DNA from: Pseudogymnoascus verrucosus
Taxonomy: Eukaryota
Strand: one strand, 5' to 3'
DNA: 64,000 bases
Assembly: GCA_001662655.1 (NCBI GenBank)
Contig: KV460208.1
Part shown: in pieces, positions 9,680 to 11,993 of the stretch
Numbering within the stretch: position 1 is the stretch's first letter
Layout: every line of letters begins with the position of its first letter
Notes under the pieces: generated by a model
What the model was told of the DNA's origin: nothing
Seen by the model: the letters and a program-made list of their open reading frames with translations, nothing else
The model's database searches: none
Position numbers and translations under genes: made by a program

Positions 9680-10606
9680 ATGCCAAAAGCAATCGCTAGT
9701 ATTGGAGAATACTCCATCCTCCCAGTATCCATACCCGAGACGAGCGCATACGCCGTCAAGGCCGTACACAGCATCTACGTCCGCCCGCACGCACCTAAAA
9801 TCCCCACGGCCTCCGATTCACGAAGCCTTTTCCTCGTTAACATCCCAATCGACAGCACAGAGCAACATATCCGCTCAATATTTTCCTCGCTGCTTGGCGC
9901 TGGCAGGTTCGAGACTGTCATCTTCGAGAACGAGCGACAGAATGCTCCGCTTGTAGTAGAGACGAAGTTAGTACAGAGCGCGAAGAACAAGAAGAGGAAA
10001 CACGCGGATGCTGTCGATAATGCGGAGACGGCGGAAGATGCCTTGCCCAAGGCTTGGGATAGGAATTTGCACCGTAGTGGCAGCACGGCCGTCGCTGTTC
10101 TGGCGGATGCGCGGTGTGTGGAGCATGCGCTGAAGGCAATCAAGAAGGCGAATAAGAGCGGAGAGTACCCTGTCTGGGGCGCGGGTGTCAATGGTGTCCC
10201 TGCACTGGGATCGTCGAGATACATGGCACATCAGAAGTTGACATATCCCCCCAAGGATGAGCTGCAGTCTGCGGTGGACAACTTCATGGCGGAGTGGAAT
10301 AGGAAGGAAGAGGAAGCTGCGAGGTTGGCGAAGCGCCAGCGCAATGTTCCGGATGAAGATGGATTTATCACCGTTACTCGCGGTGGAAGGACCGGTCCCG
10401 CACGACAGCACGATGCGGATGAAGCTAGGAAGAAGGAGTTAGAGAAGGAGGAGGCGAAGAGGAAATCTATGGGCGACTTCTACCGCTTCCAGGGCCGCGA
10501 GAGGAGGAAGGAGGAGCAGGGAGAGCTGCTCAAGCGATTCGAGGAGGATAGGAAGAGGGTGGAGGGCATGAAGACCGAGAGGAGAGGTCGGTTCAGACCG
10601 GAATAG
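9680..10606 (+). CDS. RRP7: Ribosomal RNA-processing protein 7 (UTP-C subunit)
   Basis: 308-aa ORF; RSLFLVNIP RRM-like start and C-terminal PDEDGFITVTRGGR...DFYRFQ...RFRP motifs. Confidence 0.9.
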   Translation: MPKAIASIGEYSILPVSIPETSAYAVKAVHSIYVRPHAPKIPTASDSRSLFLVNIPIDSTEQHIRSIFSSLLGAGRFETVIFENERQNAPLVVETKLVQSAKNKKRKHADAVDNAETAEDALPKAWDRNLHRSGSTAVAVLADARCVEHALKAIKKANKSGEYPVWGAGVNGVPALGSSRYMAHQKLTYPPKDELQSAVDNFMAEWNRKEEEAARLAKRQRNVPDEDGFITVTRGGRTGPARQHDADEARKKELEKEEAKRKSMGDFYRFQGRERRKEEQGELLKRFEEDRKRVEGMKTERRGRFRPE

Positions 10607-10622
10607 GGGATGTGTACTTGAG

Positions 10623-10870
10623 GTATGGCAAATACCCTTTTGATTCTTCTTCCTTCGTTCGTGTCTATTATTACAATGGACAACACACGTGATGACTCAG
10701 CGGGGCCATAGAAGTCTGGGTTCGCTGATGGGCCGATACCCACGGGGAATCCTCACTATGACTAGAAACACCGCATAAAACAATCTTCTCAACTTTTCTG
10801 ATGTGTTCCATGCCGTCCTGGAATTCCCCTACTTCGCTTTTGTGTGCAAGACTCTAACTGGGGCATTTAG
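10623..10870 (+). other. Putative 248-nt intron in the RRP7 3' UTR (snoRNA host)
   Basis: AG|GTATGG donor 16 nt after the stop codon, CTAAC branch 10854-10858, TAG acceptor 10868-10870. Confidence 0.65.
10682..10807 (+). ncRNA. Candidate intronic box C/D snoRNA
   Basis: Box C GTGATGA 10689-10695, internal CTGA (D') 10725-10728, box D CTGA 10798-10801; terminal stem AACACA (10682-10687)/TGTGTT (10802-10807) in K-turn register. Confidence 0.7.
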
Positions 10871-11993
10871 ATATCAATCGCGCCAATGATTACTGGGATG
10901 GGCATCCTACTTCGATAACCCCCGACGGCCCATAGCAGGGCAGCCTGGCATGTTAGATATGGCTTCAGTCATGTCGTTATTGTGGTAGTAACGACACGTA
11001 ACCGTTCGTCCCGACCGGGCCAGAACATTCACCATGCACGGTTGAAACGAATCCGCCCGGCTAGCCTCCCGAACAACCCACCAGTACAGAGCTCAGGTCT
11101 ATCTAGCAACTAGCCCCACTACTCCCCTGTAAAGGGCGAGGCAGATATAAAGCGATGATTACTGGTTACGCGTCTACACCTAAACGGTGGCGGGGTGATT
11201 GAATGCTTAGAACGCCTCTGGCATCGCAACTTTCGGGGGGGTGAGAGGATGGAGGGGGGCGGGAAGGGGGGGAAGCGGTGCATGATATCTTGCTCGACCT
11301 AGGCTAATCTGATGGTATATGCTACCCACGAATACTATGGTCGTAGTATCTAGGCTTGCCGATAGGCAACTGTAAGACATGGTGTTTCCATTACCCTGAG
11401 GCGGAAGGTTGGAGGACGAGTGTTTGGGTAGATAGTTGTGTTGCACTTGTATATACCAGCTTTAAACTCCCCAGGCACAAATAATCACATCATCTCTCAC
11501 ATTCGTACTTCTTTCCATAGTGATATGTGACCATATATACCATGATACCAACTAGAATATAATAAGCATGATACCTCCGTTACCATCTTCAAGCACAACA
11601 CCATCCCATACCCACAGCATCACCCCGCCCCAAACCTGAAACATCTATCATTCCTCACATCATCCAAGGTGACCAACACAGTAATGTTAATACTTTTTAT
11701 TAATTTTTTGCTTCTAATAATTCTCCCCGCATCCACGCTAAAACGCGCTGTGGTGCTTGCTCGCCGTCCATTAGGTTGTTATCCACCATCGTCCAGCAAG
11801 TGATAATGCTCTCCATCCCATGCCACAGGCACGTCCAATAATTATTCCACCCACCCCCTCCCCCTCCCCTCTCTCCCCCCAAAAAATACCCAGCTTTTTC
11901 TCTATCAAACAAAAAACACCAGCAATGCCCGCAAAGCCAGCCAGCTTCCACCCCCCAAACTTTTCCCCCCGCTTTCTCATCACCCCAAACCCC

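Follow-up and report, generated by a model that had tools for sequence, protein, structure and literature searches.

A CD_54-family box C/D snoRNA with predicted U6 pairing in the 3′UTR intron of a fungal RRP7 gene

In the 64-kb window (the whole stretch of DNA analysed here), the coding region of an RRP7 gene is followed by splice signals that enclose the motifs of a box C/D snoRNA. A sequence-only reading had proposed a non-coding intron that is kept to make a snoRNA. The locus raises the questions of whether the intron is spliced, to which family its RNA belongs, and on which target this RNA acts. We consider it highly probable that a spliced RRP7 3′UTR intron releases a CD_54 snoRNA guiding U6, with extra pairing via AAUCUUCUC. 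The features of the locus are collected in Table 1.

Table 1. Features of the RRP7 locus and of the snoRNA in its 3′UTR intron (window positions, except where loci are named)
Feature	Position	Strand	Basis or remark
RRP7 CDS	9680..10606	+	Single unbroken ORF, 308 aa, stop TAG 10604-06; ORF list and Pfam
First 3′UTR exon piece	10607..10622	+	16 nt, stop codon to donor; sequence
3′UTR intron	10623..10870	+	248 nt, spliceosomal; donor GTATGG 10623-28, branch CTAAC 10854-58, acceptor TAG 10868-70
Second 3′UTR exon	10871..11068	+	Spanned from 10869 to beyond 11068 by X14 record 7 and X17 record 11
Box C/D snoRNA, CD_54 (Nc CD54) member by sequence	10676..10811	+	Motifs, fold, Nc CD54 blocks, homologues L029-L038
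Box C GUGAUGA	10689..10695	+	Sequence; TGATGA invariant in the five-sequence alignment
D′ guide GCGGGGCCAU	10700..10709	+	Complementarity to U6
Likely degenerate box D′, (U)AGA	10709..10712	+	Alignment; CAGA in Nc CD54 and four metagenome sequences
Internal hairpin of variable sequence, D′ to C′	10713..10757	+	Contains CTGA 10725-28
Box C′ remnant CUAUGA	10756..10761	+	Alignment; UGA(C) alone conserved
Conserved block AAACACCGC	10766..10774	+	Also in Nc CD54
Conserved block AACAAUCUUCUCAA	10779..10792	+	7 nt from box D; core 10782-90 complementary to U6
Box D CUGA	10798..10801	+	Sequence; invariant in the alignment
Terminal stem 3′ strand, UGUGU and UCCAU	10802..10811	+	Pairs with 10683-87 and 10676-80; fold
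Stop-to-donor spans in homologous loci	L029 2163-2350; L031 2241-2422; L032 2235-2443; L038 2244-2431		Window 10606-10623

The host gene and splicing of its 3′UTR intron

The RRP7 ORF matches the Pfam families RRP7 (8e-35) and RRM_Rrp7 (7e-22). A metagenome scan returned ten homologous loci (L029-L038), which represent four distinct sequences. Full-length RRP7 lies upstream on the same strand in all eight loci with enough flank (L030 and L037 lack it), with 49-50% protein identity over residues 1-308 (7-308 in one alignment). Each of the four distinct loci (L029, L031, L032, and L036/L038) gave a single tblastn alignment, so that the coding region is intronless there as it is in the window. 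Therefore, the snoRNA-bearing 3′UTR intron is the only intron observed in RRP7. The sequence-only reading had described a GTATGG donor 16 nt past the stop codon, a CTAAC branch, and a TAG acceptor, and the three signals of a spliceosomal intron (GT donor at 10623, branch site at 10854, and AG acceptor at 10868-70) are indeed all present.

To compare the junction, we used assembled contigs of close relatives from the runs X13, X14, and X17. X13 is labelled as DNA and X14 as RNA, both under organism label J; X17 is labelled as RNA and comes from another study under another organism label. The RNA labels of X14 and X17 are guessed, and the contrast with the DNA-labelled X13, whose contig is continuous across 10247-11068, supports them. 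X14 record 7 opens with 28 letters of the relative's RRP7 end (GGTTCAGACCGGAATAAGATTGTACTTG) and then continues from 10869/10871 onward. Since exon and intron both end in AG, the point of joining is ambiguous by two bases. This record is the spliced junction 10622^10871 in a close relative. The intron 10623-10870 is thus real, and its splicing, which the earlier reading had left to junction reads, is observed in that relative. X14 record 4 and X17 record 8 terminate exactly at the exon end (...TACTTGAG), and the unspliced form is present in X14 record 6 and X17 record 10. In X17, each splice site coincides with a contig break, records 10 and 11 overlap by 30 nt at 10869-98, and there is no junction contig. 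Contig overlaps of 30 nt are expected at a branch of a de Bruijn graph. X14 record 6 ends at 10813, just past the snoRNA stem; positions 10814-10868 are bare in X14 and covered in X17.

In X13, X14, and X17, there are no indels inside 10676-10812. The flanks carry six in 10606-10665 (at 10606-12 and 10659-65) and three in 10913-10964. Conservation of the snoRNA in the close relatives was judged only from indels and from per-record difference counts, which amount to 10 over 10590-10813 (X14 record 6) and 19 over 10590-10898. The metatranscriptome run X19 covers the RRP7 CDS only, within 9712-9985, by two 151-nt contigs, one at at least 99% identity and the other at 95-99%. Therefore, the window species or a near relative is transcriptionally active in the X19 sample.

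Anatomy and family identity of the snoRNA

The intronic element has box C near its 5′ end and box D near its 3′ end, as expected of a box C/D snoRNA. Both boxes had been recognized in the earlier reading (GTGATGA and CTGA), and both are invariant in an alignment of the window with the four metagenome sequences. They are closed by a kink-turn terminal stem with a 3-nt bulge, C-G-U, ahead of GAUGA. The inner stem is the 6-bp AACACA (10682-87)/TGTGTT (10802-07) helix noticed before, and the fold extends it by an outer helix of ATGGA (10676-80) and TCCAT (10807-11). The snoRNA core therefore spans 10682-10807, and the outer extension brings the RNA to 136 nt at most. The terminal helix has an energy of -10.2 kcal/mol in the window and of -7.5 to -28.1 kcal/mol in the four homologues, where its sequences are different. 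The fold of the whole RNA is no more stable than those of shuffled sequences (z = -0.71); an unremarkable fold stability is normal for C/D snoRNAs. Both strands of the window were scanned for RTGATGA, a CTGA whose first base is 60-169 nt downstream of that of box C, and a stem of 5 bp or more flanking the two boxes in this exact geometry. The single candidate was the element at 10676-10811, against a chance expectation of 0.065 (mean over 200 first-order Markov random sequences). The donor lies 66 nt ahead of box C, and the end of box D is 56 nt from the branch A and 69 nt from the 3′ splice site, close to the approximately 55 and 70 nt given by the sequence-only reading.

The internal boxes are less regular. 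The CTGA at 10725-28, which had been taken as box D′, exists as a motif, but we rejected it in that role: it is absent from N. crassa Nc CD54 (described below) and the four homologues, and it lies inside a hairpin of non-conserved sequence. The conserved box D′ is likely CAGA in the relatives and (U)AGA in the window. The segment from D′ to C′ folds at -21.6 kcal/mol in the window and at -17.6 to -20.6 kcal/mol in the homologues, with sequences unlike one another. The weak C′-like ATGACTA of the earlier reading is present at 10758-64; we placed the box C′ remnant at CUAUGA, of which UGA(C) alone is conserved. This region reads GCUGAC in Nc CD54 and GGAUGAC or GCUGAC in the metagenome sequences.

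Rfam, which had been suggested as a check on the snoRNA, matched no family at the locus. There were no matches at the gathering score in the whole 64-kb window and none at E up to 10 in 10550-10950, and the four homologous loci gave three irrelevant weak matches only. The CD_54 family is not in Rfam. The family was identified by comparison with Nc CD54 (EU780978), a 125-nt RNA of N. crassa that was detected by cDNA cloning and northern blot, listed as "IR" (intergenic), and predicted to target 26S-Um667 (Liu et al. 2009, PMC2780460). We compared the two RNAs by eye, using the sequence printed in Additional file 1 of that paper. The window RNA and Nc CD54 have in common, in the same order and similarly spaced, UGAUGAC, GCGGGGCCAU, AAACACCGC, AACAAUCUUCUCAA, a 7-nt spacer, and CUGA. 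This homology extends beyond the generic boxes, and the four long blocks bear out the earlier suggestion of a snoRNA-like RNA, since Nc CD54 was detected experimentally. Exact 10-mers of the window are absent from the N. crassa supplements because the orthologue differs by one base.

On the basis of these blocks, the RNA at 10676-10811 is the orthologue of Nc CD54 and belongs to the CD_54 family. The two RNAs are similar in size (about 126-136 nt in the window), and both have a hairpin between D′ and C′ and a predicted U6 target. They differ in box D′, which is CAGA in N. crassa and (U)AGA, one base nearer the guide, in the window, and in the sequences of the central hairpin and the terminal stem. 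In addition, the N. crassa copy was listed as intergenic, whereas the window copy lies in the 3′UTR intron of RRP7. The snoRNA itself is not new. Canzler et al. 2018 ("The fungal snoRNAome") reported the Nc_CD_54 family across all Pezizomycotina lineages and assigned a highly conserved region upstream of D′ to U6-70 (N. crassa U6-55), with a mean mfe of -18.1 kcal/mol; thus, both the family and its U6 target prediction have already been published.

Complementarity to U6 snRNA

The U6 sequences used here were obtained by a pattern search of contigs filed under bacterial MAGs and come from eukaryotic contaminants, not from the window's fungus. Every one of the 15 loci retrieved with the U6 core pattern was recognized by Rfam as U6 (69.7-117.9 bits), and the core ACAGAGAAGAUUAGCAUGGCCCCUGCG does not vary among them. 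These 15 stretches (L014-L028) lie on 13 contigs binned as bacterial MAGs (GTDB species representatives). L021 also carries U2, L022 carries U4, some carry tRNA genes, and one contig holds three U6 copies (L017, L027, and L028). The U6-bearing contigs are eukaryotic contamination of the bins. Matches to the U6 pattern in viral contigs (13 loci) included no Rfam U6 and were set aside as chance matches. Duplex scoring was limited to short elements, because RNAduplex runs of the full-length snoRNA against U6 gave over-extended, meaningless duplexes.

The antisense element GCGGGGCCAU adjoins the D′ box, which is degenerate, and its fifth position lies opposite a C of the U6 CCCC run, as in a box C/D guide. 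Within it, GGGGCCAU (10702-09) forms eight Watson-Crick pairs with U6 56-63, and GC (10700-01) pairs past a bulged U64. This conserved D′ antisense of 8+2 bp is the U6 complementarity that characterizes CD_54. The duplex has an energy of -18.9 kcal/mol in the window and -21.0 kcal/mol in the four homologues, compared with the published family mean given above, and, of 20000 shuffles of the guide spacer, 134 attain a run of eight contiguous pairs at some place in U6. CAGA follows the guide in Nc CD54 and in all four metagenome sequences; with this spacing, the fifth position lies opposite the first C of CCCC (C60 in the 107-nt numbering). Because (U)AGA in the window is one base nearer the guide, the ruler may point to C61 there. 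From these spacings, methylation is predicted at either C60 or C61, the first two residues of the U6 CCCC run.

The probable target is therefore U6 snRNA rather than rRNA. The sequence-only reading had placed the RNA in a ribosome-biogenesis setting; this holds for the host gene, but, with U6 as the probable target, the link to ribosome biogenesis runs through RRP7 only. An alternative is that the RNA guides rRNA methylation by the antisense next to box D, as originally predicted for Nc CD54, where the D guide has a 10/0 match to 26S U667 (Liu et al. 2009); such a function would fit the ribosome-biogenesis host. However, the seven nucleotides beside box D vary: they are AACUUUU in the window, AACUUGU or AAAUUGU in the homologues, and AAACACU in N. 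crassa. The conserved block AACAAUCUUCUCAA begins 8 nt from box D, after the 7-nt spacer, in the window, Nc CD54, and the homologues. At this distance, it is beyond the fifth-nucleotide ruler and cannot be a canonical methylation guide. Furthermore, the 25S target is described as not conserved outside Neurospora in the CD_54 account of Canzler et al. 2018. We regard rRNA guidance as improbable.

The invariant block AACAAUCUUCUCAA contains a second U6-complementary segment. Its core AAUCUUCUC (10782-90) forms nine contiguous Watson-Crick pairs with U6 44-52 (GAGAAGAUU), with an energy of -12.0 kcal/mol. U6 44-52 is located three bases upstream of the guide duplex, across the AGC triad. When the C′-D spacer was shuffled, 109 of 20000 sequences found an equally good match at some position in U6. 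Pairing with U6 does not account for the invariant flanks (AAY.. and ..AA) of this block. The metagenome homologues were fetched by a pattern that required three conserved blocks, including ACACCGC and the second block; thus, only Nc CD54 is independent support for these blocks, AAACACCGC and AACAAUCUUCUCAA included. The CCGC of AAACACCGC could pair with the GCGG that opens the D′ guide (CGCGG/CCGCG in other lineages), to which it is complementary. None of the 15 loci with U6, U2, or U4 contains GCGGTGT, the complement of ACACCGC.

As judged from its complementarity, AAUCUUCUC is probably an "extra base-pairing" element for U6 44-52, beside the guide duplex. In rRNA guides, extra base-pairing can raise methylation up to five-fold (van Nues et al. 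2011). As in the C/D snoRNAs described there, such as snR70, snR75, and snR76, a conserved stretch outside both the boxes and the methylation guide is complementary to a site next to the methylation duplex. The concept in that paper concerns rRNA targets, and the term "snRNA" is absent from its text, whereas the predicted partner here is U6 44-52, which includes part of the ACAGAGA box. A pairing of AAUCUUCUC with U6 was not found in the accessible CD_54 literature (Liu et al. 2009 and Canzler et al. 2018). If the second block is functional, it would extend the idea of extra base-pairing from rRNA to a spliceosomal RNA.

Conservation of the RRP7 intron and its likely function

The arrangement around the snoRNA is maintained in the other lineages. 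The four metagenome sequences, in which the orthologue comparison proposed earlier found boxes C and D and the terminal stem kept beside RRP7, all have a GTGAGT donor 45-66 nt ahead of box C and a CTGAC or CTAAC branch 58-72 nt past box D, followed by AG. The introns predicted from these signals are 238-272 nt long, compared with 248 nt in the window. The notion that the intron is kept to make the snoRNA agrees with these data, as the splice signals surround the snoRNA in each of the loci with an intronless CDS.

The proposed sequence of events is as follows. RRP7 of this Pezizomycotina-type fungus would be transcribed with the 248-nt intron, which starts 16 nt past the stop codon and would be spliced out. 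We infer that the snoRNA is then freed, most likely by debranching and by exonucleases, which would trim the ends until they meet the snoRNP sitting on the C/D kink-turn and the terminal stem. GCGGGGCCAU, upstream of the degenerate D′, would pair with AUGGCCCC(U)GC of U6 and direct a fibrillarin-type 2′-O-methylation to C60, where the CCCC run begins, or to C61 if the shorter spacing shifts the ruler. AAUCUUCUC probably supplies the extra base-pairing to U6 44-52.

The snoRNA could instead be transcribed independently downstream of RRP7, in which case the flanking GT...AG would be irrelevant to its making. The "IR" entry of Nc CD54 agrees with such a gene, and the donor is 180-207 nt past the RRP7 stop codon in the four metagenome lineages, where a separate non-coding host transcript is conceivable. 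However, the same 2009 paper calls its host genes poorly annotated (PMC2780460). In X14, one contig runs from the last RRP7 codons straight into the exon that follows the snoRNA, which places the snoRNA inside a spliced RRP7 transcript in the close relative. In addition, the donor, branch, and acceptor are found at near-constant distances around the snoRNA in five of five lineages. An independent gene is thus very unlikely. A chance constellation in an ordinary 3′UTR intron without a functional small RNA, for which the unremarkable z value and the lack of an Rfam match might be taken to speak, is hardly credible in view of the low expectation of the geometry scan, the long blocks identical with those of a cloned and northern-positive snoRNA, and the conservation of the element beside RRP7 genes with such low protein identity.

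The position of the intron relative to the stop codon may have consequences for the mRNA. In animals, it is established that mRNAs are targeted for decay when the stop codon is followed by an exon junction at a distance of more than about 50 nt. Zhang and Sachs reportedly dealt with 3′UTR introns and decay in N. crassa in 2015. With the donor 180-207 nt past the stop codon, NMD is possible in the metagenome lineages if a junction-dependent pathway operates there. The spliced RRP7 mRNA of these lineages might therefore be an NMD target, whereas that of the window, with its 16-nt distance, would not.

A more far-reaching reading combines these elements. The D′ guide on U6 56-63 and the second block on 44-52 would lie on either side of the catalytic AGC triad and occupy part of the ACAGAGA box, so that the RNA would act as a clamp or chaperone as well as a methylation guide; the tie to the RRP7 3′UTR intron would predate the split of the Pezizomycotina lineages; and NMD would couple RRP7 output to spliceosome modification. 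We consider this bipartite reading speculative and, as a whole, rather doubtful.

In SNORD67, the guide adjoins box D, whereas the window RNA would use its D′ guide. The likeness between the two is functional only, as the window region matches no Rfam family: both are C/D RNAs whose antisense pairs with the GGCCCC region of U6, with methylation at C60, predicted in the case of the window. Knockout and guide mutation in mouse and human cells are reported to have confirmed SNORD67 as the guide for U6 Cm60, and its antisense nucleotide is at G97 (PMC12048515). Deletion of the RRP7 intron with the CDS kept would offer a genetic handle on fungal U6 methylation at the mammalian SNORD67 site.

With respect to its host, the locus resembles known snoRNA introns. 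In N. crassa, 45 of 55 C/D snoRNAs are reported to be intronic, and the H/ACA RNAs ACA10 and ACA16 are described as "in the 3'UTR" of protein genes; the accessible text reports no C/D snoRNA in a 3′UTR intron for this species (PMC2780460). Conserved snoRNA introns include those of snR191 in NOG2 and snR59 in RPL7B (PMC8476143). The RRP7 intron has in common with these that one snoRNA occupies one intron of a ribosome-related host, that the intron is kept where most are lost, and that the snoRNA lies at comparable distances from the splice sites. Their introns interrupt the coding region, whereas the window intron lies wholly in the 3′UTR, and the predicted target here is a spliceosomal RNA and not rRNA.

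A literature search yielded no paper that links RRP7 to a snoRNA or a UTR intron in Pezizomycotina; one unrelated preprint mentions RRP7. The term "rrp7" is absent from the fungal snoRNA and intron papers searched, including Liu et al. 2009, Canzler et al. 2018, and PMC8476143. The additions made here are modest and comprise the placing of CD_54 in an RRP7 3′UTR intron, a revision of its "intergenic" listing, and a second block complementary to U6; none of the findings overturns the current understanding. Annotation of the CDS alone misses both the intron and the snoRNA, as with the N. crassa copy that was called intergenic. Retention of the sole RRP7 intron for a U6-guide snoRNA would explain why an otherwise intron-free gene has a non-coding intron.

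Minor features were observed in the 3′UTR region downstream of the intron. The 11-mer ATGATTACTGG is present twice, at 10886-10896 and at 11155-11165. In place of window positions 11069-11156, the relatives X13, X14, and X17 have 43 different letters, and their alignment stops at 11234, just ahead of a G-rich tract of the window (11235-11280).
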